A stretch of DNA of 64,000 nucleotides from Candidatus Parcubacteria bacterium (GTDB lineage: Bacteria; Patescibacteriota; Patescibacteriia; Magasanikbacterales; UBA922), in the NCBI GenBank assembly GCA_002869205.1, contig PKTJ01000066.1, forward strand, positions 187-64,186. The letters are read 5' to 3'. The notes below the pieces were generated by a model that worked only from the letters and a program-made list of their open reading frames with translations, did no database searches and was not told the DNA's origin. Of this stretch, positions 27,496-52,100 are shown piece after piece (positions within the stretch are counted from its first letter, which is position 1; every line of letters begins with the position of its first letter). Made by a program: the position numbers and the translations under genes.

Positions 27496-27549
27496 GATTT
27501 CCAGATAACCCAGATTTACGGATATCTGAATTATCTGGAAATCCGAATC
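27496..27549. repeat. palindromic intergenic repeat family P (core GGATTTCCAGATAATCCAGATTTACGGATATC), copy 1
   Basis: 13-bp perfect arms GATTTCCAGATAA/TTATCTGGAAATC; 5 copies in the window. Confidence 0.65.
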
Positions 27550-27558
27550 TTAAAATGA

Positions 27559-28422
27559 TTAAAGAATGTCTAAGCTTATATCCAAAGACTTAACCGAGTG
27601 GGTGAGACTTCCAAGAGAAATTACGTTTACACCACTCTTTGCATAAGAAATAATATTTTTTTCTGTAATACCACCGGATGCTTCAAAAATAATATTTGTT
27701 TTTCCAATTTGTTTTATTATTTTTTTAATATCTTGTGGTTTGAAATTGTCGAACATTATTGCGTCTGGTTTTTGTTTTACAAAGTCTAATATTTGTTTTT
27801 TTGTTTTGCATTCTACTTCTGTGAAGTAACTAGTTACTGGTAACTTGTTACTAGTTACTAATTTGAGATGGTTATCTTTTATCAAAATCCAATCATATAG
27901 ACCAAGTCGGTGGGTGCCTCCGCCGCCGAGTGTCACTGCTTTTTTGTCTACCAATCCCCATTGTGTCTTGCGTGTTGGTACCACAAGTACATGTTTTCCA
28001 ACTTTTTTTACAAGTTTATCAGTTTGCGTTGCAATACCAGACATGCGTTGCATCAAGTTTAGAATCGTGCGTTCAATCTTTAAAATATCTTTTATGCCTC
28101 CTGTTAGTTTTAAAATCTTATCTCCTTTTTTTACTCTCGCTCCGTCTCGCTTGTATCTTGTAATTTGTATCTTGTATCTTTTTAAGAACCATTTTGTTTC
28201 TTCAAGACCAGCGAGTGTGCCAGATTCTTTTGCTTTTAGTATAGCAGTAACTTTTGGATTTCCTTTTATTGTTGCGTCGCTTGTGACGTCACCTTGGCTA
28301 TCCAAATCCTCAATCAAAAAATCCTCAGTTAATCTTTTTACCTGCCTCAAGTACTTACGATTTTTCAAGGTAAGTTTTTCTCTTTGGTTATAATATTTTT
28401 TGATTTTTTGTTGCTTGGTCAT
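27559..28422 (-). CDS. nadC: nicotinate-nucleotide pyrophosphorylase (quinolinate phosphoribosyltransferase)
   Basis: NadC core (LLNLMQRMSGIAT, TRKT, GGGGTHRLGLYD, LIKDNH). Confidence 0.85.
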   Translation of the reverse strand: MTKQQKIKKYYNQREKLTLKNRKYLRQVKRLTEDFLIEDLDSQGDVTSDATIKGNPKVTAILKAKESGTLAGLEETKWFLKRYKIQITRYKRDGARVKKGDKILKLTGGIKDILKIERTILNLMQRMSGIATQTDKLVKKVGKHVLVVPTRKTQWGLVDKKAVTLGGGGTHRLGLYDWILIKDNHLKLVTSNKLPVTSYFTEVECKTKKQILDFVKQKPDAIMFDNFKPQDIKKIIKQIGKTNIIFEASGGITEKNIISYAKSGVNVISLGSLTHSVKSLDISLDIL

Positions 28423-28482
28423 ATTGACTATAAAAATTTATTGTGATATGTTTTATAAGTTACACAACGGAAGGAGAGCCCT

Positions 28483-28701
28483 ATGACGTCAAAGGATGTG
28501 GTTGTCACCATCACGATCGGAGATGCAGAAGGTGATCAAGGTATCAAGGTGTCCGGAGATGTTCACCTGACTCACAACGTCGCGAACAGGGCGCTGAATC
28601 TGTTCGCCAGCACGATGCTTCATGCGCTCGGAGAGAGTAGCATGCTCGCGCGTAACTTCTGGAGTGCGATCTCGAATCTCGCATCAACGGTCCGTAAGTA
28701 G
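28483..28701 (+). CDS. GC-rich island B: hypothetical 72-aa protein inserted inside the NAD operon
   Basis: GC-rich codons in an AT-rich operon. GGAAGGAG ribosome-binding site 6 nt upstream; TTGACT-17-TATGTT promoter 2 bp from the nadC start. A tiny ORF (MPMEVQYI, 28737-28763) with its own GGAGGA site follows. Confidence 0.55.
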   Translation: MTSKDVVVTITIGDAEGDQGIKVSGDVHLTHNVANRALNLFASTMLHALGESSMLARNFWSAISNLASTVRK

Positions 28702-28830
28702 GACTAGTGAGGTTCGGTGACCATGGAGGAAAGGACATGCCCATGGAAGTACAGTATATATGAATTTCGTTTATACTGTTCTATCATGGGTAAATAATTT
28801 TGAAAAGGACTGTAGAGATACGGTTCTTTT

Positions 28831-30180
28831 TTATTTACTTAATTCCATCATTTTATCTAAACTTATTTTTGCTTTTTGTAATACTTCTTTACCAAGATTA
28901 ATAATTTGATCTTTACGTGGATTCTTAAGTGCAGTGAGAATATCTTCTAACTTTATTTTTTTCATATACGGACAGAGCTGGCAGCTACCAACAATGTGTT
29001 TATTCGGGAATTCTGTTTGTACCCTGTCGGTAATACCGCATTCAGTAATTAGCATGTAGTGCTCAGAAGGGTTGTCTTTTACATAGTTCAACATATCACT
29101 CGTGCTACCAACTAGATCAACCGAGTCAATGACAGAGGGGGTGCATTCATAATGTGCTAATATTTTTGTATGAGGAAATTGAGCTCTAATTTTTTTTACT
29201 GCGCGTTTATCAAATTGTTCATGCACTATGCATACACCATCCCATAAAATTAACTTTTTTTTCGTCAATTTTTGTAAGTTATGCCCCATAAGCATGTCGG
29301 GAATAAAAATAATTTCATCGTTTGGAAGACTTTCGATAATTTTGAGTGCATTTGAACTGGTGACACATATATCACTTTGAGCTTTTACTTCCGCACTCGT
29401 GTTTACATATGTCAAAATAGGAACTCCTGGATGTTTTTCTTTTAGATTTTGTACATCTTTGGCAGTGATTGAGTCAGCGAGTGAACATCCTGCAACTGCA
29501 GGAATAAGGACTTCTTTTTCTGGACTCAAGATTTTTGCAGTCTCACCCATGAAGTGTACTGAGCAAAAAATAATTTTCTTTGCGCTGTGTTCTGCCGCAA
29601 TTTTACTAAGCCCATATGAATCTCCAAGGAAGTCTGCTACACCATACATAATGTCTGTTGTTTGGTAAGAGTGGGCGAGTATGATGGCATCTTGTTCACG
29701 CTTTAATTTATTTATTTCAAGTGTTGTTGGTGCAATGCTTAGACAGTAGCCAAATGTCCTTTTTGTTTTTTTTAATTTTTCAAATAGACGTGCAGCTTCT
29801 TCACGTATCTCGGTTGCGCTGATGTTAATATTTTTTTTAATCATTTTTACGTTGTAATTTTTTTCTTCAAATAATTTTTTTACTACATCATTTCCTGTAT
29901 ATACTGTGTCAAATTCTCCAACAGTATTTTTGACATGATTAACCCATTCATTTTCGTTATGAATATCAGGAATGGCGATGATTTGATAATTTAAATTTAA
30001 TCCATCTAGATTAGATTCTATGTTTTTTTTACGCTCCTCAAAACTTTGTGGATTGTCATCGGTTTCACTATATTGTGAGCTACCAACACCAATAATAATC
30101 TCACTTTCTGAGATTTGTTTAATGGCATCTAAATGCCCATCATGAAATGGCTGGAATCGTCCGATGAATAGTGCTTTCAT
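28831..30180 (-). CDS. nadA: fusion protein: N-terminal NadM-type NMN adenylyltransferase plus C-terminal quinolinate synthase
   Basis: N-terminus GRFQPFHDGH..ISATEIR (cytidylyltransferase, NadM-like). C-terminus ILAHSYQ, VADFLGDS, CSVHFMGETAKIL, TYVNTS, VTSSNA and Cys ligands of NadA. Confidence 0.8.
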   Translation of the reverse strand: MKALFIGRFQPFHDGHLDAIKQISESEIIIGVGSSQYSETDDNPQSFEERKKNIESNLDGLNLNYQIIAIPDIHNENEWVNHVKNTVGEFDTVYTGNDVVKKLFEEKNYNVKMIKKNINISATEIREEAARLFEKLKKTKRTFGYCLSIAPTTLEINKLKREQDAIILAHSYQTTDIMYGVADFLGDSYGLSKIAAEHSAKKIIFCSVHFMGETAKILSPEKEVLIPAVAGCSLADSITAKDVQNLKEKHPGVPILTYVNTSAEVKAQSDICVTSSNALKIIESLPNDEIIFIPDMLMGHNLQKLTKKKLILWDGVCIVHEQFDKRAVKKIRAQFPHTKILAHYECTPSVIDSVDLVGSTSDMLNYVKDNPSEHYMLITECGITDRVQTEFPNKHIVGSCQLCPYMKKIKLEDILTALKNPRKDQIINLGKEVLQKAKISLDKMMELSK

Positions 30181-30184
30181 GGCA

Positions 30185-30227
30185 GAGTTAGAAAGTTTAT
30201 AAAGTGAAAAAGTTTTAAAGTTTACAG
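30185..30227. repeat. AAAGTT-motif repeat (GAGTTAGAAAGTTTATAAAGTGAAAAAGTTTTAAAGTTTACAG) in the nadE-nadA gap
   Basis: Shares GAGTTAGAAAGTTTA-AAAGT with the in-frame repeat at 42577-42616. Confidence 0.5.
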
Positions 30228-31012
30228 ATAGGAGGTATTTTGTTTTTGTGAGTGGCTTTGTTCATCAACTTTCTTACTTTTTCTACATCATTTGTTTCAA
30301 ATTTATCTAGACTTTTATTTTGTTCAAGTGACGTCAAAATTTTATCGAGTGTTTCATATGTCATTCCAATCTCATCTTCATCAGTTTGCCCATCCCATAG
30401 TCCAGCCGTTGGTGGGCGATCGATTATTTCCTGCGGTACACCTATGTATTTTGCAAGCTCTCGTTCTTCGGTCTTGTATAAGTCACCAATGGGAAGGAGG
30501 TCTGCGCCGCCGTCACCATGTTTTGTAAAGTATCCAATTGAGAGTTCAGTCCTGTTTCCTGTACCGAGCACGAGTCCGTCTAGTTCGTTTGCTTTTCCAT
30601 ACAGAAGTGACATGCGAATGCGTGCTTTCAGATTTCCCAAAGATTGTTTTGAGGTATAAAGGTTATCTGTAGATTTTTGGAAGCTTTCAATAATAGTATC
30701 AATATTGAATATTGAATATTTAATATCTAGATTTTCACATATATTTTTTGCATATTCCAAATCTTGATCAGTATTTGTTTCAGAAGGGGATATGATTGTA
30801 TGAATTTTATTGCTCCCGAGTGCTTCTGCTGCTAAATATGCAACGACAGAAGAGTCTAATCCGCCACTTAATCCCAAGACGGCAGGCTTGTCTTCACAGT
30901 ACTTTTGCAAGAAGGAAATAATCGATTTTTTGGAGTGTTCTGAGTTCATGTGATAGGTATTATGATCGACAGGTATTCTAGCACAAGGATCCACAGTTGT
31001 CATTATTGACAA
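30215..31012 (-). CDS. nadE: NH3-dependent NAD+ synthetase
   Basis: PP-loop SGGLDSS, about 265 aa, NAD cluster context. Confidence 0.9.
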   Translation of the reverse strand: MSIMTTVDPCARIPVDHNTYHMNSEHSKKSIISFLQKYCEDKPAVLGLSGGLDSSVVAYLAAEALGSNKIHTIISPSETNTDQDLEYAKNICENLDIKYSIFNIDTIIESFQKSTDNLYTSKQSLGNLKARIRMSLLYGKANELDGLVLGTGNRTELSIGYFTKHGDGGADLLPIGDLYKTEERELAKYIGVPQEIIDRPPTAGLWDGQTDEDEIGMTYETLDKILTSLEQNKSLDKFETNDVEKVRKLMNKATHKNKIPPICKL

Positions 31013-31048
31013 ACTTGCCTGATTTATGTATAATTTTCTCGTCCTTAA

Positions 31049-31120
31049 GGCCCCATCGTCTAGTGGTTAGGACATCTGGTTTTCATCCAGAAAACAGGGG
31101 TTCGATTCCCCTTGGGGCTA
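31049..31120 (+). tRNA. tRNA-Glu (anticodon TTC)
   Basis: Manual cloverleaf: acceptor GGCCCCA/TGGGGCT, anticodon stem-loop TCTGG-TTTTCAT-CCAGA, T-loop GGGGTTCGATTCCCC; CCA not encoded. Confidence 0.75.
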
Positions 31121-31135
31121 CGAATTATCGTACTA

Positions 31136-31164
31136 TTGACATATATGTGTTTATATAGTACTAT
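31136..31164 (+). promoter_or_regulatory. sigma70-like promoter upstream of rplJ (TTGACA-17-TACTAT)
   Basis: Read directly from the sequence. Confidence 0.5.
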
Positions 31165-31189
31165 ATTCACATCCATAGACAGCAGGTGC

Positions 31190-31295
31190 CATAAGGCTTA
31201 ATTTCCTGCCGAGGTAACTCTTAGCTAATTTTAGCTAAAATAAGGTCGAAGAGTACCGAAAAGTCTGTGGTTAAAAACCACAGTTTTATTTTTTC
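31190..31295 (+). promoter_or_regulatory. rplJ (L10) leader with intrinsic terminator/attenuator
   Basis: Structured leader ending in CTGTGG-ttaaaaa-CCACAG plus a T-run 6 nt before the rplJ ATG; analogous to L10-leader autoregulatory elements. Confidence 0.45.
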
Positions 31296-31300
31296 AAGTT

Positions 31301-31822
31301 ATGGCAAAAACAAAACAAACTAAAGAACAAGCCGTTCAAGAGTTGGTGGAGAGCCTAAAAAACTCAAAATCAGCTGTTTTTGCAAATTTTCAAGGACTCA
31401 AAGTTTCTGAGTCTGAAGAGCTTCGCGCACTTTGTCGTGAACAAAACGTGAAGTATGTGGCTACCAAAAAGACATTGCTCAAGCGTGCACTCGCTGAACT
31501 TGATCTCGAAGTAGACACAAAAGCATTTGAAGGTGGTCCTGCTATCGTCCTCGGAGTAGAAGACGAAGTTGCTCCAGCTCAAATTCTTGCAAAATTTGCA
31601 AAAGATCATGAACTCGCAACTATGTTTGGTGGAATTTTAGAAGGAAACTATATTGACGGAGAAAAAGTCAGTGAACTTTCAAAACTTCCAAGCAAAGACG
31701 AGCTTCTTGCGAAAATGGTTGGTTCTCTCAATGCACCGGTATCTGGATTTGTAAATGTCCTTGCTGGTAATTTGCGTGGACTTGTAAGTGTACTAAACAA
31801 TATTAAAGACGCAAAAGCGTAG
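31301..31822 (+). CDS. rplJ: 50S ribosomal protein L10
   Basis: Typical L10 N-terminus (KEQAVQELVESLKNSKSAVFANFQGLKV) and position before rplL. Confidence 0.95.
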   Translation: MAKTKQTKEQAVQELVESLKNSKSAVFANFQGLKVSESEELRALCREQNVKYVATKKTLLKRALAELDLEVDTKAFEGGPAIVLGVEDEVAPAQILAKFAKDHELATMFGGILEGNYIDGEKVSELSKLPSKDELLAKMVGSLNAPVSGFVNVLAGNLRGLVSVLNNIKDAKA

Positions 31823-31830
31823 GTAATATA

Positions 31831-31894
31831 CGGATTTCCGGATAATCCAGATTTACAGATATCTGTCGATCAGGATTATCCGGAGATAAGGATC
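31831..31894. repeat. palindromic intergenic repeat family P, copy 2 (between rplJ and rplL)
   Basis: CGGATTTCCGGATAATCCAGATTTACAGATATCTGTCGATCAGGATTATCCGGAGATAAGGATC. Confidence 0.65.
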
Positions 31895-31933
31895 TAAAAG
31901 ATTAAGTTAAATTATCATAAATTTACAAAACGT

Positions 31934-32347
31934 ATGTCAGAAGAAACAAAAACAGAGGTAGTAGTACCAGAAAAATTTAAATCTCTTGTAGAAGAGGTTG
32001 AAAAAATGTCTGTACTTGACCTCGCAGAACTTGTAAAAGTTCTTGAAGACAAATTTGGTGTTTCAGCTGCTGCTCCTGCAATGATGATGGCAGGCGGTGC
32101 TGCTGCTGGCGGTGACGCTCAAGCTGCAGAAGAGAAGACTGAATTCACTGTTGAGCTTACTGCTGCTGGAGATAACAAAATTGGTGTTATCAAAGCTGTA
32201 AAAGCTGCAACTGGACTTGGTCTTGCTGATGCAAAGGCACTCGTAGACGGAGCTCCAAAAGCTATCAAAGAAAATATCGCAAAAGCTGAAGCTGAAGAGC
32301 TTCAAAAAGCTTTAGAAGAAGCAGGTGGTTCTGTAGAACTCAAATAA
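31934..32347 (+). CDS. rplL: 50S ribosomal protein L7/L12
   Basis: Ala/Gly-rich hinge and conserved C-terminal domain ([30 protein letters not shown]). Confidence 0.95.
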
Positions 32348-32351
32348 ATCG

Positions 32352-32716
32352 TTTGTCATCCTGAGCGTAGCGAAGGATCTTTCGAAAATAAGACCGGTGT
32401 TGATTCACCGGTTTTTATTTTTGTGATACACTACTAGTAGTATTCACTAACAAATTCATGTAATATGCATTTAAGTTGGGTTTTTGTTTTGATCTCTTTA
32501 ATTATTTTATACGGATTTTATGCATATAAGATGTATAAGAAAGATCAGGAGATAGAAAGGTGGAGATCAGAGTCTGAGAAATGGCATAGACGGTATAAAG
32601 AAAAAGGTGAAGAATAAAAAACTGACATTCTGCTGTCAGTTTTTCTTTTTAAAACATTTGTGGTCAGAAAGATCCCTCGACTTCGCTGCGCTCCGCTCGG
32701 GATGACAATTACATAT
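32352..32716. mobile_element. MITE-like element: ~35-bp imperfect terminal inverted repeats (TTGTCATCCYGAGCG..AGCGAAG..GGATCTTTC) flanking a ~290-bp AT-rich core with hairpin terminators at both ends and a 28-codon ORF
   Basis: The left repeat 32352-32386 and the reverse complement of the right repeat 32674-32716 align. Internal hairpins ACCGGTG-ttgat-CACCGGT+T-run and CTGACA-ttctg-CTGTCAG+T-run. Confidence 0.45.
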
Positions 32717-34955: not shown

Positions 34956-35058
34956 AGTTAAAATACGTTGACTTTTATGGTCATACTTATTATACTATAA
35001 CTCGCAAAAGCTTGGAAGAGCTGGTAGGCCAAAAAAGCCCACAGGGCCTTGAATAGTA

Positions 35059-35721: not shown

Positions 35722-35735
35722 AACCTACAAAATAT

Positions 35736-36122: not shown

Positions 36123-36123
36123 T

Positions 36124-37891: not shown

Positions 37892-37907
37892 AATATTGAG
37901 ATACGGA

Positions 37908-37972
37908 TTTCCAGATACCCTAAGGGCATCCATCTTCGGGGATAATCCAGATTTACGGATTTTGTATCTGTA
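37908..37972. repeat. palindromic intergenic repeat family P, copy 3 (with a 23-nt ACCCTAAGGGCATCCATCTTCGGGG insert)
   Basis: Read directly from the sequence; copy 5 carries the same insert. Confidence 0.6.
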
Positions 37973-37989
37973 TATCAGAATATTATTTT

Positions 37990-39489
37990 ATGAATAATCA
38001 GTACAAACCAATTCAACTTCATAAACCACGTAAATGGCCATGGGTATTATTTGTGATTGTTTCGATATTGTTTGGTACTGGTTGGTATGCATATACATGG
38101 CTCAAACAGTTGGATCCCGCAGATATATTTGAATCTGAATTTGTACGTGATCAGGTTGAGCGTCAGCTCGGAGAGGATAAGGCTGAGTTGTTTGACCTCT
38201 TGCCAGGATTGCTTGGGTTTACTGAGAAAAAAACATACCTTGTACTACTATTGAATAATACAGAGATGAGACCAGGCGGAGGATTTATTGGAACCTATGC
38301 AGTTGTGGAGGCCAATAAAGGAAGTGTAAATGTGCTCGAGGTAGAAGGAACAGAGCGTATTGATGGGCGTACTCCTGCGAGTTGGAATCCGAAACCAATT
38401 CCTGTTTTGGAAGAGCATTTACATGTTGATAAATGGTATTTTCGTGATAGTAATTGGTCACCCGATTTTCCTACGGGCGCACAAAAGGCACTTGAACTAT
38501 ACAAAGGAGAGAGTGGTGTTGCGGCAGAAAGAATTGATACGGTAGTAGCAATTACTACGACTGTTTTAGAAGAGTTGTTAGAAATCACTGGCCCTATTGA
38601 AATACAGGGGATTACATTTGATGCTCAGACAGGTATTGAAACACTTGAGTATGAGGTAGAATATGGGTTCAAAAAGAGGGGTATTTCTTTTGCTGAAAGA
38701 AAACAAATTATTGAGCCGTTTATGAGTGAGCTTATGGATAGGTTAACTGATGATGTTTTTCAAAATCTGGATATTTATGAAGAGGCGTTGAACAAGATGA
38801 CTGAAGAAAAACATTTGTTTGTATATTCCAAAGATGAGGATTTTCAAAAAAAGATGGATGAGTATGATTGGTCTGGTCGTATGCATGAGTCAACAGGTGA
38901 TTATCTTTTGTGGACAGACGCAAACTTGGCTGCACTGAAGACTGACCATGCAATGGAGCGCACACTTTCGTATTCTCTTTCAAAGCGTCCTCCTGCTCAC
39001 GAGTTAGAAGATTTTCATTATTTGGCAGCTGCAACAATGACATATACCAATAATGGTTCATTTGATTGGCGTACGACGAGATATCGCACATACGCACGTG
39101 TATTTGTTCCACTTGGATCCAAGCTTGTTTCTGTAGTTGGGTCGATGAAGTGGGATCGCACGGATGAGGAAGGTGTTGTCGATGAGGGTATTGAGAATGG
39201 TAGACAATGGTTTGGCACCTTTATTGCAATCGAGCCAGGAGAAACAAAGTCACTTGAATTTATTTACAGATTACCAGCACATGTGACTGATGATATAGAA
39301 AATGATTCGTATACACTTTTTGTTCAAAAGCAGTTAGGAACTATTAATCATGGTTTGACGCTTGGTCTGGATTTTGGTAAAACTATTACAGTGGCCAAGC
39401 CTGCAGAAGATGAGCAGGAGTGGTTTGATACATCATATACATATAGTACAGATTTACATATAGACAGAGAGTTTCATGTGAGCTTTTAA
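37990..39489 (+). CDS. hypothetical membrane-anchored protein (possibly DUF4012-like)
   Basis: N-terminal TM helix, LLLNNTEMRPGGGFIGTYAV segment; family assignment tentative. Confidence 0.4.
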   Translation: MNNQYKPIQLHKPRKWPWVLFVIVSILFGTGWYAYTWLKQLDPADIFESEFVRDQVERQLGEDKAELFDLLPGLLGFTEKKTYLVLLLNNTEMRPGGGFIGTYAVVEANKGSVNVLEVEGTERIDGRTPASWNPKPIPVLEEHLHVDKWYFRDSNWSPDFPTGAQKALELYKGESGVAAERIDTVVAITTTVLEELLEITGPIEIQGITFDAQTGIETLEYEVEYGFKKRGISFAERKQIIEPFMSELMDRLTDDVFQNLDIYEEALNKMTEEKHLFVYSKDEDFQKKMDEYDWSGRMHESTGDYLLWTDANLAALKTDHAMERTLSYSLSKRPPAHELEDFHYLAAATMTYTNNGSFDWRTTRYRTYARVFVPLGSKLVSVVGSMKWDRTDEEGVVDEGIENGRQWFGTFIAIEPGETKSLEFIYRLPAHVTDDIENDSYTLFVQKQLGTINHGLTLGLDFGKTITVAKPAEDEQEWFDTSYTYSTDLHIDREFHVSF

Positions 39490-40513: not shown

Positions 40514-40672
40514 TTTATTAACCTGGGTGGCGTGTAATTCGCCAACTGGACGTGAGCCCAGTACCGTATGGTACAGGGTATAGCCGTCGATCCACATTTA
40601 GTGGAATGATTCCGTGCAACTCGGAAGCCAACCGTATAGTCGGGACCCTGACGTTAGTCGGGGTATCACATT
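40514..40672 (+). ncRNA. candidate structured RNA / cis-regulatory leader (GC-rich, multi-hairpin) between mreB and the EamA transporter
   Basis: About 52% GC in an AT-rich genome, with at least five local hairpins (TGGCG-tgtaatt-CGCCA, GTACC-gtat-GGTAC, CCAC-attta-GTGG, GGAA-tga-TTCC, CTGGG...CCCAG). The track ORFs on the minus strand here look spurious. Identity unknown. Confidence 0.35.
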
Positions 40673-41680
40673 GTGTTCCTGCATAGTGTGATAATAAGGA
40701 AATATATGAAGAAAACATATGTTGGTGCTTTGAGCATCATGCTCGCAGCTTTTTTGTGGGCGTTTGATGGTGTGGTTCTCACACCATGGATTATGAAATT
40801 GGGTCTCTATGACGTCCCAATTTTTGTTTTTATGTTCCACGCAGTAGGATCATTATTTTTGTCCTACTTTTTTATTACCAAGAGACAAGAACTAAAAAAG
40901 CTTGATTGGAAAGATTGGGGCGCATTTGTTTTGGTTGGTGTATTTGGAGGAGCGCTCGGAACCATGGGAATTGTTGGGGCAATTATTTTTGTACATAGTC
41001 ATCATCTAAATATTTCGGTTGTATTATTACTCCAAAAATTACAGCCTATTTTTGCTATTTTGCTTGCTATCTTAATTCTCAAAGAGCGTCCAAAGATACA
41101 ATTTTATGTACTGGCGGCTTTTGCATTGGTTGGTAGTTACTTTTTAACATTTGGATTTGGTATGCCAGATTTGAGTGCGGGTGGTATGTTGATACCTGCA
41201 CTTCTTGCGCTACTTGCTGCGTTTTCATTTGGTTCATCAACTGTATTTTCCAAACGTGCGATTACAAAGGTGAGTCACGGCACAGGAACTATGCTTAGAT
41301 TTTATATCACTACACTTGTCATGATTGTGATTATCGCAGCCGTGTCATTGTTGAAAGCTTTCGGGATGGAGATATCGTATGCAGGGTTTGGTGGATTTAG
41401 TATTGTTGGCTGGAAATTGATTGGTGCATTTGTTGTAGTTGCTCTAACAACAGGAATTTTTGGTATTTTTATCTATTATTATGGACTTAAGCGTATCATG
41501 GCTTCACGTTCGACTATTTACGAACTTATGTTTCCTGTAAGTTCTATCTTTCTTGAATGGCTCATTCATGACAAGACATTGAACATAGGGCAATGGTTTG
41601 GTACTATAGTACTGTTCACTGCAATGATTTTTATTGCACGTCTAAGTAAATCATATGAAAAAAACAGTGAAATTATATAA
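40673..41680 (+). CDS. EamA/DMT family transporter (likely start at MKKTYVG, 40706)
   Basis: Ten TM helices in a duplicated 5+5 EamA pattern. Confidence 0.7.
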   Translation: MFLHSVIIRKYMKKTYVGALSIMLAAFLWAFDGVVLTPWIMKLGLYDVPIFVFMFHAVGSLFLSYFFITKRQELKKLDWKDWGAFVLVGVFGGALGTMGIVGAIIFVHSHHLNISVVLLLQKLQPIFAILLAILILKERPKIQFYVLAAFALVGSYFLTFGFGMPDLSAGGMLIPALLALLAAFSFGSSTVFSKRAITKVSHGTGTMLRFYITTLVMIVIIAAVSLLKAFGMEISYAGFGGFSIVGWKLIGAFVVVALTTGIFGIFIYYYGLKRIMASRSTIYELMFPVSSIFLEWLIHDKTLNIGQWFGTIVLFTAMIFIARLSKSYEKNSEII

Positions 41681-42129: not shown

Positions 42130-43233
42130 ATGAAAATAGGGATAGACGCATCACGAGCTAATGAAACACAAAAGACCGGTGTAGGTTGGTATGCTTATCA
42201 TGTGATACAAGAATTGAAAAAACAAACACCTCGCGATGTCGAGGTTGTTTTGTATACGAATAAACCACTTCAAGGTGACCTTGCTGACTTGCCAAGTGGA
42301 TGGACACAAAAAGTACTCAAATGGTCACCAAAAAGATTGTGGACGCAGGTGAGGTTGAGTTGGGAGATGTTATTACATCGACCAGATGTTTTGTTTATTC
42401 CAGCTCATGTGTTCCCATTGATTCATCCCAAGAAAACAGTAATGACAGTGCATGATATTGCAGCTATAACATTTCCTGGGAGCTATAGTTGGTTTGAGAG
42501 GTGGTACAGTGTGTGGTCTGCACGCGTAGCTTTGAAAAAGTTATGGAAAATAATTACGCCGTCAGAGTTTACGAAGAGTGAGTTAGAAAGTTTAAAAGTT
42601 AGAAAGTTTAAAAGTGATAAAATTCATGTGATTCATCATGGGTATGATAAGAGGTATAGTGAGAATGAGAATAAGGTTGAGATTGAAAAGGCGTTAGACA
42701 AGTACGGATTGAAGAAACCATTTCTCATGAGTATTGGTCGTCTTGAAGAAAAGAAAAACACGGTAAGAATTATCAAAGCATTTGAGAAATTACGGCTTAC
42801 GACTGAAAACTTGCAGCTCATTCTTATCGGTAATCCAGGTCATGGTTATGACAAAGTGAAAAAGGTGATTGACAATTCAAAATATAAAGAGGATATTATT
42901 ACACCTGGTTGGGTAGACAATAATGATCTACCAATCTTGATGAGCGGTGCAGAAGTATTTGTTTTCCCGAGTCTCTATGAAGGGTTTGGAATCCCTGTAC
43001 TTGAATCCCTGGCAAGTGGCACACCTGTCGTTACCTCAAAAGGTAGTTGTCTAGAAGAAGTTGGTGGAGACGTGTGTATATATGTTGATCCAGCCGATGT
43101 TGATAGTATTGTGCATGGTATTTCAGACGCTTTTGATGCATCAGAGATTAGAATTCAACAGGGCTTGAAACATACAGAAGGTTTTTCGTGGGAAAAGTGT
43201 GCTAAAAAGACACTTGAGACATTATTGTCTTGA
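42130..43233 (+). CDS. family 4 (GT-B) glycosyltransferase
   Basis: C-terminal EX7E region (EGFGIPVLESLASGTPVVTS) and GT4 N-terminal domain. Start placed at MKIGIDAS. Contains an in-frame 16-bp tandem duplication. Confidence 0.8.
   Translation: MKIGIDASRANETQKTGVGWYAYHVIQELKKQTPRDVEVVLYTNKPLQGDLADLPSGWTQKVLKWSPKRLWTQVRLSWEMLLHRPDVLFIPAHVFPLIHPKKTVMTVHDIAAITFPGSYSWFERWYSVWSARVALKKLWKIITPSEFTKSELESLKVRKFKSDKIHVIHHGYDKRYSENENKVEIEKALDKYGLKKPFLMSIGRLEEKKNTVRIIKAFEKLRLTTENLQLILIGNPGHGYDKVKKVIDNSKYKEDIITPGWVDNNDLPILMSGAEVFVFPSLYEGFGIPVLESLASGTPVVTSKGSCLEEVGGDVCIYVDPADVDSIVHGISDAFDASEIRIQQGLKHTEGFSWEKCAKKTLETLLS
42577..42616 (+). repeat. in-frame tandem duplication (TTAGAAAGTTTAAAAG)x2 inside the GT4 CDS
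   Basis: Encodes SELESLKVRKFKS. Same motif family as the intergenic AAAGTT repeats. Confidence 0.8.
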
Positions 43234-43262
43234 GGTTAAAATTATGCTATCCTTAGACATAT

Positions 43263-44156: not shown

Positions 44157-44160
44157 GTCA

Positions 44161-44243
44161 GTTATAAGTCATAAGCTGTAAGTCGTAGTTTCCAATATCG
44201 ATATTTAATCTAAGGCTTACAGCTTAATATTTATAACTTATAA
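44161..44243. repeat. imperfect inverted repeat element (GTTATAAGTCATAAGCTGTAAG ... CTTACAGCTTAATATTTATAACTTATAAC)
   Basis: Read directly from the sequence; intergenic between holB and the BNR protein. Confidence 0.45.
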
Positions 44244-44252
44244 CTTTTATAT

Positions 44253-45335: not shown

Positions 45336-45383
45336 CTAGGACTAGTCGTAAAATTATTTGTTTGGATTTTGCTTTTTGTAACT

Positions 45384-45430
45384 AACCCCACCCGTTCCCT
45401 CCCCTAATAGGGGAGGGTCAGGGAGGGGTG
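45384..45430. repeat. GC-rich nested-palindrome intergenic repeat, copy 3
   Basis: AACCCCACCCGTTCCCTCCCCTAATAGGGGAGGGTCAGGGAGGGGTG. Confidence 0.6.
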
Positions 45431-45480
45431 TAATAGCTGAGAAGCAGATTATCTGATTTATTATTAACACATAGTATTGT

Positions 45481-46032: not shown

Positions 46033-46037
46033 TGAGA

Positions 46038-46070
46038 TTCGGATTTCCAGATAATTCAGATTTACGGATA
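46038..46070. repeat. palindromic intergenic repeat family P, copy 4 (half element abutting the dtd start codon)
   Basis: TTCGGATTTCCAGATAATTCAGATTTACGGATATG, where the final ATG is the dtd start. Confidence 0.6.
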
Positions 46071-46507
46071 TGAAAATTATACTACAGCGAGTAACACAAT
46101 CTCAGGTTGATGTAGATAATCAAACCGTTGGAAAAATTTCTAACGGTTTCTTGGTCTTACTTGGTGTAGGTCAAGGAGATACAACTCTTCATGCAGGTAG
46201 TTTGGTTGAAAAGATAATAAAATTGAGAATCTTTGAAGATGAAGATGGAAAAATGAATAAAGATATTACAGAAGTGGGTGGTGAAATGTTGGTTGTGTCC
46301 CAATTTACATTGTATGCAAATTGTAAAAAAGGGAATAGACCTAGTTTCGTAGAAGCTGCACCGCCAGATGAAGCAAAAAAACTATACGAATATTTTGTTA
46401 AAAAAATAAAAGAAAAGGGCATAAGTGTTGCGACGGGTCAGTTTGCAGCACATATGTATGTAGAGCTTGTCAATGACGGGCCTGTCACATTAATTTTAGA
46501 ATCTTAA
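46070..46507 (+). CDS. dtd: D-aminoacyl-tRNA deacylase
   Basis: MKIILQRV, SQFTLYA and GNRPSF motifs; 145 aa. Confidence 0.9.
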   Translation: MKIILQRVTQSQVDVDNQTVGKISNGFLVLLGVGQGDTTLHAGSLVEKIIKLRIFEDEDGKMNKDITEVGGEMLVVSQFTLYANCKKGNRPSFVEAAPPDEAKKLYEYFVKKIKEKGISVATGQFAAHMYVELVNDGPVTLILES

Positions 46508-46512
46508 TTTTT

Positions 46513-47085: not shown

Positions 47086-47103
47086 GTTGTCATCGATTAT
47101 GAT

Positions 47104-48417
47104 ATGCCAAAAAAAGCTTCTAAAGAAAGAAAAACAATTTTTGACACTACAGATCTTGAGATAACTAAGGAAATCAAAAAAGCCTTGGGTATAATGGAAA
47201 ATACCAGAGACAATGTGTATGTGACAGGGAAAGCTGGAACAGGTAAGTCTACGCTGCTTAAGCATTTTTGTAATAACACGACAAAAAATATTGCCATAGT
47301 GGCACCAACTGGCGTGTCTGCTATTAACGTTGAAGGAGTGACGATTCATTCCTTTTTTAAATTTCCTTTTGGAATACTCGAGGAAAAAGATGTTGAATAT
47401 CATTTTTTCAAGCAGGATATTTTTAAAAATTTACAGACATTGGTTATAGACGAGGTTTCTATGATTCGATCAGACTTAATGAATGCGATAGACCTCGCAC
47501 TGCGAAAAAATACTGGAAAGAAAAATCTTCCATTTGGTGGAGTACAGGTTGTTATGTTTGGCGATCTTTATCAGTTGCCACCGGTGGTAACGAGCAGAGA
47601 AGAGCGAGATTATCTAAAAGAAACATTTGGAGGAATATATTTTTTTTATGCACCAGTTTTTAAAAAGATGAAGCTTAAGAAAATTAATTTGACCAAAATC
47701 TTTCGACAAAAGGACGATAAAAAATTTGTACAACTTTTGAATAGTATTCGTGAAAAAAAAGTATCAACACAAGATTTGAAAAATATCAACGAACGCGTAG
47801 TACCTTACAATAAGAAAAAAGAACCAGCCATAGTGTTGGCTACGGTAAATAAAACTGTAGATAATATCAATGAAGAAAAATTAGCGCAGATAAAACAAAA
47901 AGAATATACATTTCACCACACATTAACAGGAGATTTTGATGAAAAAAAGTCACCAGCTGATACTGAGCTGAAGTTAAAGAAAGGTGCTCAGATAATGATG
48001 ATTAGAAATGATAACCAAATACCACGTCGTTGGGCCAACGGCACTCTTGGTACAGTCACTACATTGTCAAAAGATAGAATTGTAGTAACAATTGGGGTAG
48101 AAAAATATGAGATAGAAAAAGCAACTTGGGATGATATGGAATATGAGTATGATGAAGAGGAAAAGATAATTGATCGTTTTTCAAAAGGTTCTTTTATACA
48201 ATATCCTCTCAAGCTTGCATGGGCGGTGACCATACACAAGAGTCAGGGTAAAACTTTTGATCGTGTTATTTTGGATTTGGGGCGCGGTGCGTTTACCCAT
48301 GGTCAAACGTATGTTGCATTTAGTAGGTGTACCACTCTTGATGAGATTTATCTCAAACAACCTGTGAGATTTTCAGATATTATTTTGGATAGCGAAGTAA
48401 AGGAATTTCATGAATAA
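47104..48417 (+). CDS. PIF1/RecD-family 5'-3' DNA helicase
   Basis: Walker A GKAGTGKST, DEVSM, GDLYQLPPV and C-terminal ITIHKSQGKTFD motifs. Confidence 0.8.
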   Translation: MPKKASKERKTIFDTTDLEITKEIKKALGIMENTRDNVYVTGKAGTGKSTLLKHFCNNTTKNIAIVAPTGVSAINVEGVTIHSFFKFPFGILEEKDVEYHFFKQDIFKNLQTLVIDEVSMIRSDLMNAIDLALRKNTGKKNLPFGGVQVVMFGDLYQLPPVVTSREERDYLKETFGGIYFFYAPVFKKMKLKKINLTKIFRQKDDKKFVQLLNSIREKKVSTQDLKNINERVVPYNKKKEPAIVLATVNKTVDNINEEKLAQIKQKEYTFHHTLTGDFDEKKSPADTELKLKKGAQIMMIRNDNQIPRRWANGTLGTVTTLSKDRIVVTIGVEKYEIEKATWDDMEYEYDEEEKIIDRFSKGSFIQYPLKLAWAVTIHKSQGKTFDRVILDLGRGAFTHGQTYVAFSRCTTLDEIYLKQPVRFSDIILDSEVKEFHE

Positions 48418-48423
48418 TGTGGC

Positions 48424-48595
48424 TTGACATATACATTGTTTTTAAGTACCATAGATATATCATTTATGAAACATATATGGCGTATGTGGAGATGATACAA
48501 ATCTAACGAGAGATCTGGCAACCAGTCAGATAACTTGGGTGGAACCCCCCGACGCACATCGGGGCCCGAGACCGTTTTTATGGTCTTTTTTTAAT
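48424..48595 (+). promoter_or_regulatory. promoter (TTGACA-17-TACCAT) plus candidate glycine T-box leader with terminator upstream of glyQS
   Basis: AGAGA box, specifier-candidate GGC within ATCTGGCAACC, T-box-like AACTTGGGTGGAACC (UGGA fits the tRNA-Gly discriminator U), then hairpins and a T7 run 45 nt before the glyQS start. Confidence 0.5.
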
Positions 48596-48637
48596 GTAAC
48601 ATATCAGGTATAATTAACATACACATAATATAAATAT

Positions 48638-49948
48638 ATGACTTTAGATAGTTTAGAACCAGTCGTTTCTTTAGCAAAACGTCGTGGTTTTATTTTTCCT
48701 GGATCAGACATCTACGGAGGGCTTGCTAATAGTTGGGACTATGGTCCTCTTGGTGCACAAATGCGCATGAATATTAAGACTGACTGGTGGAAGAAAATTG
48801 TAGAACAGCGCGCAGACATGGTTGGGCTTGATGGTGCCATCATGATGAACCCAAAAGTATGGGAAGCAAGTGGACACGTGGACACGTTTAATGATCCTTT
48901 GGTGGAATGTAAGAAATGTAACAAGCGTTTCCGAGCTGATACTATGACAGGTGAAGAAAAATGTCTCAAAGGAAAAGATCATGAACTGTCAGAACCACGC
49001 ACTTTTAATCTCATGTTTCAGACAAGTCTCGGGAAGACAGGAGAAGACAAAGGAATGGTGTATCTTCGTCCCGAAACAGCTCAAGCAATGTTTGTAAATT
49101 TTAAACATGTATTAGATACAACACGCAAACGTCTGCCATTTGGTATCGCTCAGATTGGAAAAGCATTTCGTAATGAAATTACGCCAGGTAATTTCACGTT
49201 TCGTACGCTTGAATTTGAACAGATGGAAATTGAATATTTTCTTGAGGAAGAAGATTGGAAAGAATCTTTTGAGTCGTGGGCAAATTGGATGGAAGAATGG
49301 GCAGCGTCAGTTGGTATCAATCCAGACATGCTACATCGCTTAGAAGTTCCCGAGGAAGAGCTTGCACATTATTCCAAACGTACGCTCGATTTTGAATTTG
49401 ATTTTCCATTTGGAACAAAAGAATTGTGGGGCCTTGCATATCGCACTGATTTTGATTTGAAAAATCATGAAAAACATTCAGGAGAATCTCTCGTATATTC
49501 TGATCCGGCTGACAATAAGAGAAAAGTAGTGCCGCATGTGGTAGAGCCAACATTTGGTGTTGATCGTACACTTCTAGCAATGCTTGTGAGTGCGTATAGT
49601 GAAGAAGAAGTAAAAGATGGTGACACACGTGTGGTAATGCAATTCAAACCACATATGGCACCATATCACATTGCGGTATTACCGTTATCAAAAAAAGAAG
49701 AGCTTTCAGGTGTAACACACGAAATTTTTGAAGATCTCATAAAGACATATCGATGTGAGTATGATGACACCGGAAGTATTGGTAAGCGTTATCGTCGTCA
49801 AGACGAAATTGGTACACCATATTGTGTTACGGTTGACTTTGACTCACTCGAGGACAAGGCAGTGACTGTACGTGACCGTGATACTATGGAACAGGAGAGG
49901 ATCTCTATTGAAGAGTTAAAAAATTATTTTGAAAATAAATTTAATTAA
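48638..49948 (+). CDS. glyQS: glycine--tRNA ligase (alpha2 type)
   Basis: Class II motifs, WDYGPLG, Zn-ribbon-like CKKC, 436 aa. Confidence 0.9.
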   Translation: MTLDSLEPVVSLAKRRGFIFPGSDIYGGLANSWDYGPLGAQMRMNIKTDWWKKIVEQRADMVGLDGAIMMNPKVWEASGHVDTFNDPLVECKKCNKRFRADTMTGEEKCLKGKDHELSEPRTFNLMFQTSLGKTGEDKGMVYLRPETAQAMFVNFKHVLDTTRKRLPFGIAQIGKAFRNEITPGNFTFRTLEFEQMEIEYFLEEEDWKESFESWANWMEEWAASVGINPDMLHRLEVPEEELAHYSKRTLDFEFDFPFGTKELWGLAYRTDFDLKNHEKHSGESLVYSDPADNKRKVVPHVVEPTFGVDRTLLAMLVSAYSEEEVKDGDTRVVMQFKPHMAPYHIAVLPLSKKEELSGVTHEIFEDLIKTYRCEYDDTGSIGKRYRRQDEIGTPYCVTVDFDSLEDKAVTVRDRDTMEQERISIEELKNYFENKFN

Positions 49949-49959
49949 ATTTAATATTT

Positions 49960-50454
49960 TTGTTGCGTATGGGTGGTGTGGGATTTGGAAAAACAAGAGA
50001 AATAAATAGAACAATAGTAGAAGATGATACGCTAGATACAGAGCCCTGTACTCTTGGCGGAGCGTCTTTGTCACAAGAAGAAAGTTCACCTGATGTGTCT
50101 TCACACGAAGTAGTTACACAGGAGCACGATATCCCAACATCTATTGAAAAAGCGAAAAAGCAGAAAGAGGAATTCGAGTGTGCTTTTAAGAAAGAATTTC
50201 CAACAATGTTTGAAGGTAGAGAGAGAACGGTCTTTGATTGTATTCAGATGTTTGTGGATCAAGATGGTGCTGGTAATCATGAGTTCAAAAAAAGAGGTGA
50301 ACTTACGAAAGCAGACTTGGATAGACGAGAGGAATATGAAAGTGATCTTCTTGAAATATATAAGAGTGGGAGAGGGAGAGATTATGAAGATGCACTTCTA
50401 GAATATCAAGGTATAATCCTTTGTTTGAGAGATTTAACTACTCGAAAGAAATAA
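49960..50454 (+). CDS. hypothetical protein (164 aa)
   Basis: ORF only. Confidence 0.35.
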   Translation: MLRMGGVGFGKTREINRTIVEDDTLDTEPCTLGGASLSQEESSPDVSSHEVVTQEHDIPTSIEKAKKQKEEFECAFKKEFPTMFEGRERTVFDCIQMFVDQDGAGNHEFKKRGELTKADLDRREEYESDLLEIYKSGRGRDYEDALLEYQGIILCLRDLTTRKK

Positions 50455-50747
50455 TCTTTAATATAACACATATGAAACCAGGTAATCCATCTATGGAGGC
50501 AATGCGTGAACAAAGGGCGTTTCGCATAGAGGCTATCGAAGGACAATTAGGTATCGTCAGGGCAAAGTTAGATACTTTGTTTAAAGATAAAGGAGGTTAT
50601 GATATTAATTCTGAAGGGCTCATCTTACAAAAAGAGAGCGAAGTTGTGTTTGAGGGAGATGAGACTGAGGTTTTAAGAGAATCTCAAGAACAATTATTTT
50701 CTTTATATAGAGAACTGAATATACTCAAATCTCAAGAACAAAAATAA
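50421..50747 (+). CDS. hypothetical protein (probable start at MKPGNPS, 50472)
   Basis: ORF only. Confidence 0.35.
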   Translation: MFERFNYSKEIIFNITHMKPGNPSMEAMREQRAFRIEAIEGQLGIVRAKLDTLFKDKGGYDINSEGLILQKESEVVFEGDETEVLRESQEQLFSLYRELNILKSQEQK

Positions 50748-50750
50748 ATT

Positions 50751-52010
50751 ATGTACGAAACATATACATTGAATAATAAAGCACAAGTAATATTTGTCCC
50801 TGTTGAAGGTACGAAATCCGTGACCACGCTTGTTATGTATCCTGTTGGTTCACGCTATGAATCTGAAAAAATGTCCGGTGTATCACACTACGTAGAACAC
50901 CTTATGTTCAAGGGGACAAAGAAGCGCCCAAACACACTCAAACTGACACGAGAAATTGATCGTCTTGGTGCACACTATAATGCGTTTACGGGGAAAGAAT
51001 ATACTGGTTACTATATTACGACTGATGCTGGTTATACCCAGACTGCAATTGATATTTTGTCAGACATGCTTTTTGATTCTCTCTACGATCCAAAAGAAAT
51101 GGAACGTGAAAAAGGGGTAATTGTCGAAGAGATTAGAATGTACAAAGATAATCCACTCATGAACATTGATAATATTTTTGAAGATCTCATGTACGAAGGG
51201 TCTCCGCTTGGTAGAGATATTGCCGGTACTGAGAAACATGTACTTGGGTACAAGCGCAAAGATGTTCTTAATTATCGAGACAAATATTATGAACCTCAAA
51301 ACATGATTATTGCAGTGGCAGGCGCGGTGGATGATAAGACAAAAGAATTAGTAAAAGAATATTTTGGCTCAAGGAAAAATAAAAAGTCATCATCAAAATC
51401 ATTTAAGCCATATTGTTTTGGTTCAGAAAAAAAAGAAGACAGGATTTTGGTTGAGCACAAAGAAACAGACCAAGCGCAGCTTATGCTCGGATTTCCTGGA
51501 TTTAAATATGATGACAAACGAAATGTTGTAGAAGGTGTAATGAATACTATACTTGGTGGTTCCATGAGTTCTCGTTTGTTTATTCAAATTCGTGAGCGCA
51601 GAGGCTTGGCATATATGATTCGTAGCGGATCTGATAATTTTCGTGACACCGGGTACGCATACATACGTGCAGGACTTGATGCAAAAAATATAAACAAAGC
51701 AATTAGTGTAATTAAAAAGGAAATAGAAAAGATTGTAAAAAATGGTGTGACAAAAAAAGAATTAGAAGATGCAAAAACGCATATTCGTGGATCACTCACA
51801 CTGTCTCTTGAAGATTCTGGTGCACAAGCTAGTTGGTATGCGCGCCAAGTGATGTTTGTGCCGACAATTAAGACACCAGAACAAAGACTTGCAGAAATTG
51901 ATAACGTGACAAATGAAGATATTAAACGTGTAGCAAAACAAATTTTCAAATGGAATAAAATGCGTATCTCTGTGATTGGAAATGTCCAAAAAGAAGATAT
52001 TAAATTTTAA
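50751..52010 (+). CDS. M16 family (pitrilysin/insulinase-like) zinc peptidase
   Basis: Inverted zinc motif HxxEH (HYVEHLMFKGT) and downstream E. Confidence 0.85.
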   Translation: MYETYTLNNKAQVIFVPVEGTKSVTTLVMYPVGSRYESEKMSGVSHYVEHLMFKGTKKRPNTLKLTREIDRLGAHYNAFTGKEYTGYYITTDAGYTQTAIDILSDMLFDSLYDPKEMEREKGVIVEEIRMYKDNPLMNIDNIFEDLMYEGSPLGRDIAGTEKHVLGYKRKDVLNYRDKYYEPQNMIIAVAGAVDDKTKELVKEYFGSRKNKKSSSKSFKPYCFGSEKKEDRILVEHKETDQAQLMLGFPGFKYDDKRNVVEGVMNTILGGSMSSRLFIQIRERRGLAYMIRSGSDNFRDTGYAYIRAGLDAKNINKAISVIKKEIEKIVKNGVTKKELEDAKTHIRGSLTLSLEDSGAQASWYARQVMFVPTIKTPEQRLAEIDNVTNEDIKRVAKQIFKWNKMRISVIGNVQKEDIKF

Positions 52011-52013
52011 TTA

Positions 52014-52100
52014 AGATCCTGATATTCGGATACCCTTAGGGCATTTCTCTCCGGGAATAATCCAGATTTACAGATATCACATCCGTAGATCTGGATTATC
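52014..52100. repeat. palindromic intergenic repeat family P, copy 5 (with an ACCCTTAGGGCATTTCTCTCCGGG insert)
   Basis: ATTCGGATACCC...AATCCAGATTTACAGATATC...ATCTGGATTATCCGGAAATCAG. Confidence 0.65.

Follow-up and report, generated by a model that had tools for sequence, protein, structure and literature searches.

Dispersed palindromes of a Parcubacteria contig as probable gene-less members of an inverted-repeat element family associated with GxxExxY nuclease genes

In a stretch of 64,000 nucleotides of contig PKTJ01000066.1 from a Candidatus Parcubacteria bacterium (below, "the window" is this whole 64-kb stretch) lie five copies of a dispersed palindromic element, which a sequence-only reading had taken either for a family resembling repetitive extragenic palindromes (REPs) or miniature inverted-repeat transposable elements (MITEs), or for a palindromic operator of a genome-wide regulator. 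All five copies were recovered where that reading had placed them and all five are intergenic, as it had claimed, i.e. located between open reading frames (ORFs). The window holds no rRNA, and the copies sit between protein genes. The repeated unit is a 33-nt arm of four tandem sub-repeats of 8-9 nt (ATYCRGAT WTMCRGAT AATCCAGAT YTACRGAT; sub-repeat period 8, 9, 8), the consensus and near-invariant columns of which were derived from an alignment of 72 instances. An arm may stand alone or be joined by an inverted partner, the inner ends of the two then facing each other. With the family delimited by arms of 3-5 tandem sub-repeats of 8-10 nt, all five window copies fall within it. The core ATAATCCAGATTTACGGATAT was matched six times at two mismatches or fewer, namely by one arm each in copies 1-4 and by both arms of copy 5, against an expectation of 0 by chance (100 dinucleotide-preserving shuffles); the copies are real. 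A search of the window with a profile of the unit returned only these five sites, which consist of arms only: a solo arm, three inverted pairs, and a further pair in which one arm is truncated.

Copy 1 lies between the stop codon of nadC (27559-61, minus strand) and the start codon of nadB (27483-85, minus strand) and consists of a full arm at 27491..27523 (plus strand, ATGCTGAT TTCCAGAT AACCCAGAT TTACGGAT; 35.4 bits, model positions 2-35) and an inverted arm without sub-repeat 4 at 27524..27548 (minus strand, reverse complement ATTCGGAT TTCCAGAT AATTCAGAT; 23.7 bits, positions 2-27), the two forming a hairpin of 13+5 bp (DNA-fold z -6.2). Copy 2, in front of rplL, starts 5 nt past the rplJ stop with a full arm at 31828..31860 (plus strand, ATACGGAT TTCCGGAT AATCCAGAT TTACAGAT; 41.9 bits), followed by a diverged inverted arm at 31861..31893 (minus strand, reverse complement ATCCTTAT CTCCGGAT AATCCTGAT CGACAGAT; 8.9 bits, a partial match; fold z of the copy -4.2). 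Copy 3 is found between a gene for a 505-aa hypothetical protein (hyp505) and a DUF4012 gene (ATG at 37990). It comprises the outer half of an arm, sub-repeats 1-2, at 37901..37917 (plus strand, ATACGGAT TTCCAGAT A), a nested 24-nt insertion after sub-repeat 2 at 37918..37941 (plus strand, CCCTAAGGGCATCCATCTTCGGGG, repeat family D6), the inner half of the arm at 37942..37960 (plus strand, ATAATCCAGAT TTACGGAT; 25.3 bits) and an inverted arm truncated to sub-repeats 1-2 at 37964..37981 (minus strand, reverse complement ATTCTGAT ATACAGAT AC; 9.3 bits). Copy 4 is a solo arm at 46037..46069 (plus strand, ATTCGGAT TTCCAGAT AATTCAGAT TTACGGAT; 38.7 bits) that forms no hairpin, with the frr stop (46030-32) upstream and the ATG of dtd (46070-72) immediately continuing the arm. 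Copy 5 starts 5 nt past the stop of an M16 peptidase gene and precedes tpiA (ATG at 52127). Its left arm is split into an outer half at 52016..52032 (plus strand, ATCCTGAT ATTCGGAT A; a profile match) and an inner half at 52057..52075 (plus strand, ATAATCCAGAT TTACAGAT; a core and profile match) by a nested 24-nt insertion at 52033..52056 (plus strand, CCCTTAGGGCATTTCTCTCCGGGA), which is not in the orthologous copy of locus L031. After a spacer at 52076-52080 a full inverted arm follows at 52081..52113 (minus strand, reverse complement ATACTGAT TTCCGGAT AATCCAGAT CTACGGAT; 40.0 bits; fold z of the copy -3.9). The distance to the downstream start is 5, 40, 8, 0 and 13 nt for copies 1-5, respectively, and the inner ends (YTACRGAT) face each other ('> <') in copies 1, 2, 3 and 5, as they do in the gene-bearing elements described below.

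Several details of the sequence-only reading could be sharpened. Perfect 13-bp arms had been ascribed to all copies and were found in copy 1 only, and the supposed conserved loop is in fact the inner half of the arm (sub-repeats 3-4). Folding gave hairpins for copies 1, 2 and 5 and a poor result for copy 3 (z -1.3), in which the left arm is full and only two sub-repeats of the right arm are left, and for copy 4 (z +1.0), which is a single arm. One copy had been said to supply the ATG of dtd, and this holds: the unit ends at 46069 and the ATG at 46070-46072 continues the usual ...GGAT followed by AT of the unit. The dtd start is real, since a Pfam match spans dtd residues 2-144. The insertion reported as shared by two copies does occupy the same point of the unit in copies 3 and 5; it measures 24 nt rather than 23 nt, and the two are identical at only 18 of the 24 positions. 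A diverged relative of the insert of this shared-indel subfamily was seen by eye in L063, and the first 12 nt of the window insert, CCCTWAGGGCAT, occur in no fetched locus. At the same point of the unit, L027 and L071 carry a different, nearly perfect 20-nt palindrome, CCTGCCTRCCGGCAGGCAGG. The point after sub-repeat 2 looks like an insertion hot spot.

To learn how widely the unit occurs, species-representative genomes were scanned with the core pattern, which gave at least 94 stretches; all counts on distribution given here are among the matches listed. About 35 of the 94 stretches listed come from unrelated phyla and are single chance matches without the outer sub-repeats. The whole unit was present at 59 loci or more, in at least 23 assemblies with a G+C content of 33-49%, so that the proposed search of relatives did find the arm in Magasanikbacteria-type assemblies; the record titles of these loci name Candidatus Magasanikbacteria, Magasanikiibacteriota, Parcubacteria and Patescibacteria. 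Titles reading 'uncultured Gammaproteobacteria' also occur on element carriers (L009, L010, L015-L017, L025, L028, L036, L053, L063, L066, L067 and L078). They are probably wrong, as L078 is syntenic with the window (amino acid identities of 60% for hyp505, 44% for the DUF4012 protein and 57% for frr). The closest relative of the window among the fetched loci was SI034_bin149. A scan of viral contigs gave four core-pattern matches, all without outer sub-repeats, and these were set aside as chance matches. The spacer between paired arms measures 0-5 nt in the window and 5-35 nt, without conservation, elsewhere.

Starting from the DNA, the only ORFs inside a facing pair of units were genes of 125-146 aa with a PF13366 (PDDEXK_3) domain, in L077, L049 and L040; in L018 the arm upstream of such a gene is full and the one downstream is truncated. 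The enclosed proteins belong to NCBIfam TIGR04256, 'GxxExxY protein' (69-103 bits, cut-off 35), and match Pfam PF13366 with 82-88 bits (cut-off 22). In the reciprocal test, GxxExxY genes were chosen by protein alone in 80 metagenome loci, of which 61 were non-identical with both flanks available. A set of 113 control ORFs served for comparison: the flank-versus-flank inverted-repeat score of 47 of these 61 genes lay above its 99th percentile, with a median of 23 against 8.5 in the controls, and over all fetched loci the median inverted-flank score was 22 for GxxExxY genes versus 8.5 for 2784 other ORFs. The nine distinct genes nearest to the L077 protein carry exactly the CCGGAT-type unit of the window on their flanks, and a tenth (L101) has it on the upstream side only. 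With the unit profile, the window arms score 35-42 bits and the arms flanking GxxExxY genes (L077, L049, L040, L018, L095-L106) 19-45 bits. Remoter GxxExxY clades show the same arrangement with other sub-repeats (GCGAAT, GCCAAT, GCGGAT, ACGAAA, CACAAAT), and the arm sequence follows the protein clade (Spearman 0.63 between protein identity and arm similarity; none of 2000 Mantel permutations was as high). The same build is found on replicons of cultured bacteria, for instance in Bacteroides finegoldii (CACAGAGG arrays), in Bernardetia and, between fabD and fabG, in Sphingomonas (GCGCGAAG arrays), and it is partly present in Treponema and Gemmatirosa.

Within the 64-kb window no GxxExxY gene was detected by tblastn or by profile search, which makes the window copies gene-less, non-autonomous members. 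This check for a cognate gene covers the 64 kb of the window; elsewhere, the metagenome-assembled genomes (MAGs) DOYU01, MFQN01, MFRB01 and JAHFHV01 each hold both gene-bearing and gene-less forms. Gene-less pairs far outnumber gene-bearing ones. A decayed GxxExxY gene was found in L019, with another arm type, and no protein remnants that would mark intermediates of internal deletion were present in the 75-160-nt spacers of L050, L080 and L087. In L007, L008, L020, L022, L062, L072 and L086 a conserved GTGAMCTRY...TTTAA stretch and ATTTGTG-type sub-repeats come after a solo arm of the CCGGAT type, these sub-repeats being the arm type of the GxxExxY gene of L062; these combinations may be hybrid arm pairs or adjacent insertions.

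The GxxExxY protein itself has an intact active site of the form D...ExK...QxxxY, in which D71, E81, K83 and Q95 are invariant. An AlphaFold2 model (mean predicted local distance difference test score 91.5) had lambda exonuclease, LHK-Exo and Cas4 as its best folds in the PDB (E ~5e-4, template modelling score ~0.5), and the PDB held no sequence homologue. By motif and modelled fold it is thus a minimal Cas4/RecB-type (lambda-exonuclease-like) PD-(D/E)XK nuclease, the active site of which appears intact. The family is large, with 9,828 clusters at 50% identity (E<=1e-3). Many of the representatives P0061-P0204 measure 270-900 aa, and in them the domain may be terminal, on one side or the other, or central; in such cases the called ORF probably continues across an arm into an adjacent host gene. 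The function of PF13366/TIGR04256 was given as 'Unknown' in the survey of Steczkiewicz 2012 (PMC3424549), and in the library searched we found no literature tying the family to flanking repeats.

Both forms of the element are placed at gene junctions with considerable precision. Of 47 gene-bearing elements, 39 have a co-oriented downstream ORF that starts within 120 nt; the median distance between arm and start is 5 nt, and that to the upstream stop is 1.5 nt. The association with gene starts, which had been put forward as a check, was also seen for gene-less elements, 60 of 67 of which adjoin a gene start (median 9 nt). A position between convergent gene ends was seen for only one of 44 doubly classified elements (4 of 57 with the other gene caller). 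Solo arms take both orientations relative to transcription (about 12 the same, about 11 opposite).

Occupancy of orthologous junctions is patchy. The hyp505-DUF4012 junction, filled in the window, is empty (about 27 nt) in L071 (73% amino acid identity). The rplJ-rplL junction of L090 carries a solo arm at the same spot as copy 2, and the M16-tpiA junction of L031 carries an orthologous pair without the 24-nt insert, in which the central 25 nt are inverted relative to the window (24 of 25 identical after reverse-complementing). Junctions occupied in more than one species are gap-pgk (L102, L106 and L107), rplJ-rplL (window and L090) and M16-tpiA (window and L031). A look-up with the window rplL, as a way to an empty site, returned only the same genome. 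Repeats of other types were seen at some of these junctions: that between hyp505 and DUF4012 in L078 (~6090-6210, minus strand) has a different palindromic repeat, of the GTCATTGCGAGGAGCC...GGTCGCAATGAC type, a relative of which is nested between two arms in L087 (~4745-4885), and the nadC-nadB spacer of L059 (4629-4695, minus strand) has a one-sided array of AAGCCTTC-like sub-repeats of 8-9 nt and no CCGGAT-type element.

Taken together, these data make it probable that the five copies are gene-less (REPIN/MITE-like, a REPIN being a REP doublet that forms a hairpin) members of a family of selfish inverted-repeat elements associated with GxxExxY nuclease genes in Magasanikbacteria-type bacteria of the Candidate Phyla Radiation (CPR). 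The elements would be selfish DNA, and the GxxExxY nuclease would recognise the sub-repeat arrays on its own flanks and in the gene-less copies and cut or nick there, after which repair or recombination by the host could copy or retain the arms. The cutting would be hydrolytic and involve no covalent transposase intermediate, which would account for the lack of target-site duplications. The observation that the protein P0007 was met in a single context, and that certain junctions are shared between species, suggests that movement is rare and inheritance mostly vertical, as for REPINs and their REP-associated tyrosine transposases (RAYTs). Where arm pairs are transcribed within operons they would form long hairpins, possible substrates of RNase III as in the intervening sequences (IVS) of rRNA; such a role would be a side effect and not a selected function.

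The conservation of the arms is in line with recognition by a protein. The two arms of a pair agree at variable columns with an identity of 0.546, against 0.59 for shuffled partners (1955 of 2000 shuffles were as high or higher); the arms thus do not covary, and pairing is not what keeps the sequence. It is each arm's own sequence that is conserved, which would fit binding by a protein. In a pseudo-replicated sample of 16 pairs, 14 have unlike bases in their two arms at the R of the inner sub-repeat, a hint that left and right ends are differentiated.

A number of points weigh against this explanation. Target-site duplications were not found: the flank-repeat lengths of 27 arm pairs followed the distribution obtained with shuffled pairing. 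No act of movement was caught, and spread is what we infer; a search for recent movement through identical proteins in differing contexts gave P0007 in one context only, on 19 contigs. That the same junctions are filled in different species may mean that the elements are old and nearly immobile. The covariation of arm and protein is also expected from co-inheritance of a linked block. To our knowledge, a PD-(D/E)XK nuclease alone cannot rejoin DNA. Moreover, genes of the unrelated family PF05635 ('23S rRNA IVS protein', a four-helix bundle) are flanked by inverted arrays of sub-repeats of about 8 nt in four of five cases; as two unrelated proteins are thus carried in like fashion, the enclosed gene could be cargo and is not necessarily the engine. 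These PF05635 genes lie outside rRNA, at 1201-1626 of L009 (minus strand), 1084-1437 of L072 (plus strand), 1747-2097 of L007 (plus strand) and 3108-3470 of L061 (minus-strand coordinates). The sub-repeats on their flanks are of the types ACATTGTT, TTGACAAT, AACACA and AACTTGG.

The alternative that survives best, although we consider it rather unlikely, is that arm pairs existed beforehand and that GxxExxY genes are of the free-standing homing type, encoding a nuclease that cuts the centre of a pair, whereupon repair copies the gene in via the homology of the arms. The nuclease would then spread only itself, and something else would spread the arms. PD-(D/E)XK homing endonucleases do exist (e.g. 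I-Ssp6803I), the gene always lies exactly between two inward-facing arms, gene-less pairs are much commoner than gene-bearing ones and, as said, target sites are not duplicated, all of which this explanation accommodates. However, a spacer conserved in neither length nor sequence provides no fixed recognition site at the centre, arms of about 33 bp are short for recombinational repair, and the arms of distant clades differ completely, which argues that arm and protein diversify together.

A role at the RNA level, with the hairpins selected as RNase III sites, mRNA stabilisers or terminators, appears improbable to us. All copies lie within co-directional strings of genes and are therefore probably transcribed, copies 1, 2 and 5 fold well, and rRNA IVS with terminal inverted repeats are indeed excised by RNase III (PMC4990558). 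On the other hand, neither a truncated pair (copy 3) nor a solo arm (copy 4) can fold, solo arms occur in both orientations to transcription, the arms show no covariation, no T tract was called as a terminator at any of the copies, and Rfam 15 gave no match at gathering score at any copy. At E<=1 only palindrome-type matches to mir-9424 appeared, on both strands and with 36 bits against a gathering score of 90, and these were rejected. We also gave up the idea that a hairpin bridges the gap between a Shine-Dalgarno sequence and the start codon, since a Shine-Dalgarno signal is absent from this genome: in the window GGAG, GAGG, AGGA or AAGG precedes 6 of 51 genes, equal to the background of 12%, and the regions before the starts are A/T-rich. 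GxxExxY genes of other MAGs have AAGGAGG before their start.

It is more doubtful still that the sub-repeat arrays bind a global transcription regulator of the downstream genes, the second proposal of the sequence-only reading. A gene start stands beside 60 of the 67 gene-less elements, tandem short repeats are typical of protein-binding arrays, and the sequence is kept across species of very different G+C content. Nevertheless, the adjacent genes (nadB, rplL, the DUF4012 gene, dtd and tpiA) are unrelated housekeeping genes without functional coherence. The architecture varies from one arm through a truncated pair to a full pair, in some cases with nested insertions, and arms occur in both orientations. 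Orthologous junctions are empty (L071) or hold other repeats (L078, L059); L090 and L031 have kept the element. With the start codon 0-13 nt away, a promoter would find no room downstream of an operator site, sigma-70 promoter-like matches in the promoter scan were at background (61 versus 63.5), and the arms flank a nuclease gene on both sides. We therefore do not uphold the operator.

Least probable are ordinary MITEs derived from a DDE-type insertion sequence, or REPs moved by a RAYT (an HUH Y1 transposase) encoded elsewhere, for despite the terminal inverted arms, the small size, the many copies, the lack of coding capacity and a Y1_Tnp gene in one Magasanikbacteria locus (L055), there is neither a target-site duplication nor an unpaired GTAG/CGTC tag, the Y1_Tnp gene is flanked by unrelated GTAG-type hairpins, and the units enclose no transposase gene but only PF13366. 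The operator, structured-RNA, ordinary-MITE and REP explanations are thus less well supported than that of gene-less members of a nuclease-associated family.

The large and phylogenetically wide family PF13366/TIGR04256 thereby gains a first genomic context, and a testable function is suggested for the GxxExxY protein, the predicted one being array-specific binding and cleavage of DNA. The elements are widespread in Magasanikbacteria and insert precisely at operon junctions, and their gene-less arm pairs populate CPR genomes. They possibly constitute a new class of minimal selfish element, one that would account for conserved 'mystery' palindromes in these streamlined genomes. For annotation, they explain ORF calls that run through arms into host genes as well as contig breaks at element sites. 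More speculatively, and we put this forward as a tentative idea, GxxExxY proteins could in general be sequence-specific nucleases that keep and spread their own inverted arrays of 8-nt sub-repeats, a second, non-HUH instance of the REPIN-RAYT lifestyle, forming with PF05635 one widespread junction-inserting class of which the window palindromes would be REPIN-like offspring; if true, this class of selfish elements would reach from CPR bacteria to Bacteroidota and Alphaproteobacteria.

The window contains further repeats. A second dispersed family has the same build, with tandem arrays of the 8-nt AAAGTTWR, often as inverted pairs (17 matches versus 0.4 expected), at 13756, 22225-22320, 26235-26272, 30184-30280, 42579-42621, 53855-53930 and 54097-54185. 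One pair lies between tRNA-Thr and tRNA-Tyr, one stops 6 nt short of the ATG at 54191 and one adjoins the start codon at 30180; a partner gene of these arrays was not seen in the fetched loci. GC-rich hairpins (CCCTCCCC TAATA GGGGAGGG), the flanks of which extend the complementarity, make up a third dispersed palindrome family, with every copy intergenic, at 3669-3736, 24493-24572 and 45374-45432. Just upstream of the ORF at 40673-41680, a match resembling a flavin mononucleotide (FMN) riboswitch was found at 40514-40661 (plus strand), covering the full length of the model with 55.8 bits (E 2.4e-10), below the gathering score of 66.2.

Among known systems, the closest likenesses are to REPs and REPINs with their RAYTs and to the ORF-bearing IVS. 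In REP-RAYT systems, as here, short extragenic repeats occur as singlets and as foldable inverted doublets, one small nuclease-type gene lies between two inverted copies of the repeat, the repeat sequence is specific to the protein clade, inheritance is mostly vertical and target-site duplications are absent. The enclosed protein differs, being a PD-(D/E)XK protein (PF13366) here and an HUH Y1 transposase (PF01797) there. REPs are marked by a palindrome of 20-40 bp that carries, at one end, an unpaired GTAG or CGTC tag (PMC3733652). The outer ends of our elements read ATYCRGAT without such a tag, the sole YTAC lies inside the inner sub-repeat, within the stem, and the arm is an array of four tandem sub-repeats of 8-9 nt rather than a simple stem. 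REPs are found mainly downstream of genes, between unidirectional and convergent ORFs (PMC3733652), whereas the elements described here adjoin gene starts. The Y1_Tnp gene (PF01797, IS200/RAYT-type) of L055 (147-596, plus strand), with its inverted GTAG-type hairpins GTAGCCAGGGGCTTTAGCCCCTGG ... GTAGTCCCGTAGGGACG that are unrelated to the unit, was recovered by our inverted-flank scan of all ORFs, indicating that the method sees RAYTs and that RAYTs are not tied to the unit.

With MITEs such as the Correia elements of Neisseria, the window copies share that they are small, non-coding, present in many copies, bounded by inverted terminal repeats, near gene starts and, as is probable for the window copies, co-transcribed with neighbours, with subfamilies defined by internal indels and a longer partner with the same ends. 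Correia elements duplicate a TA target. Our elements lack a target-site duplication and end in arrays of sub-repeats, and the partner encodes only a PD-(D/E)XK protein of 125-146 aa and no recognised transposase. The description as REP/MITE-like is therefore apt for build and behaviour, given that the element is multi-copy, intergenic and non-coding, comes as arm pairs and solo arms, has an indel subfamily, occupies junctions patchily and has a gene-bearing partner; as a statement of membership in either family it fails, for want of a GTAG/CGTC tag, a RAYT, a target-site duplication and a recognised transposase. Homing PD-(D/E)XK genes, such as that of I-Ssp6803I, are likewise small selfish nuclease genes precisely placed in conserved gene strings, co-oriented with the host genes and without space for a promoter of their own. 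They need no terminal inverted repeats, however, and leave no dispersed gene-less repeats, while the sites occupied here are many and unrelated.

The IVS of rRNA are selfish elements with terminal inverted repeats that are excised by RNase III and transmitted vertically after acquisition (PMC4990558). As in the 23S rRNA IVS of Coxiella and Leptospira (S23p/PF05635), the inverted repeats at the termini make a stem and enclose one small ORF or none; unlike these, the window copies are situated between protein genes and not in rRNA helices 25 or 45, and the ORF is a PF13366 nuclease gene and not PF05635. Since the defining features of REPs, MITEs and IVS were tested and each lacked at least one counterpart here, the element stands apart from all three. 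The PF05635 genes that lie outside rRNA in Magasanikbacteria loci have inverted arrays of about 8 nt exactly like those of GxxExxY genes, and this link suggests that the ORF-bearing rRNA IVS are a special case of a broader class of elements.

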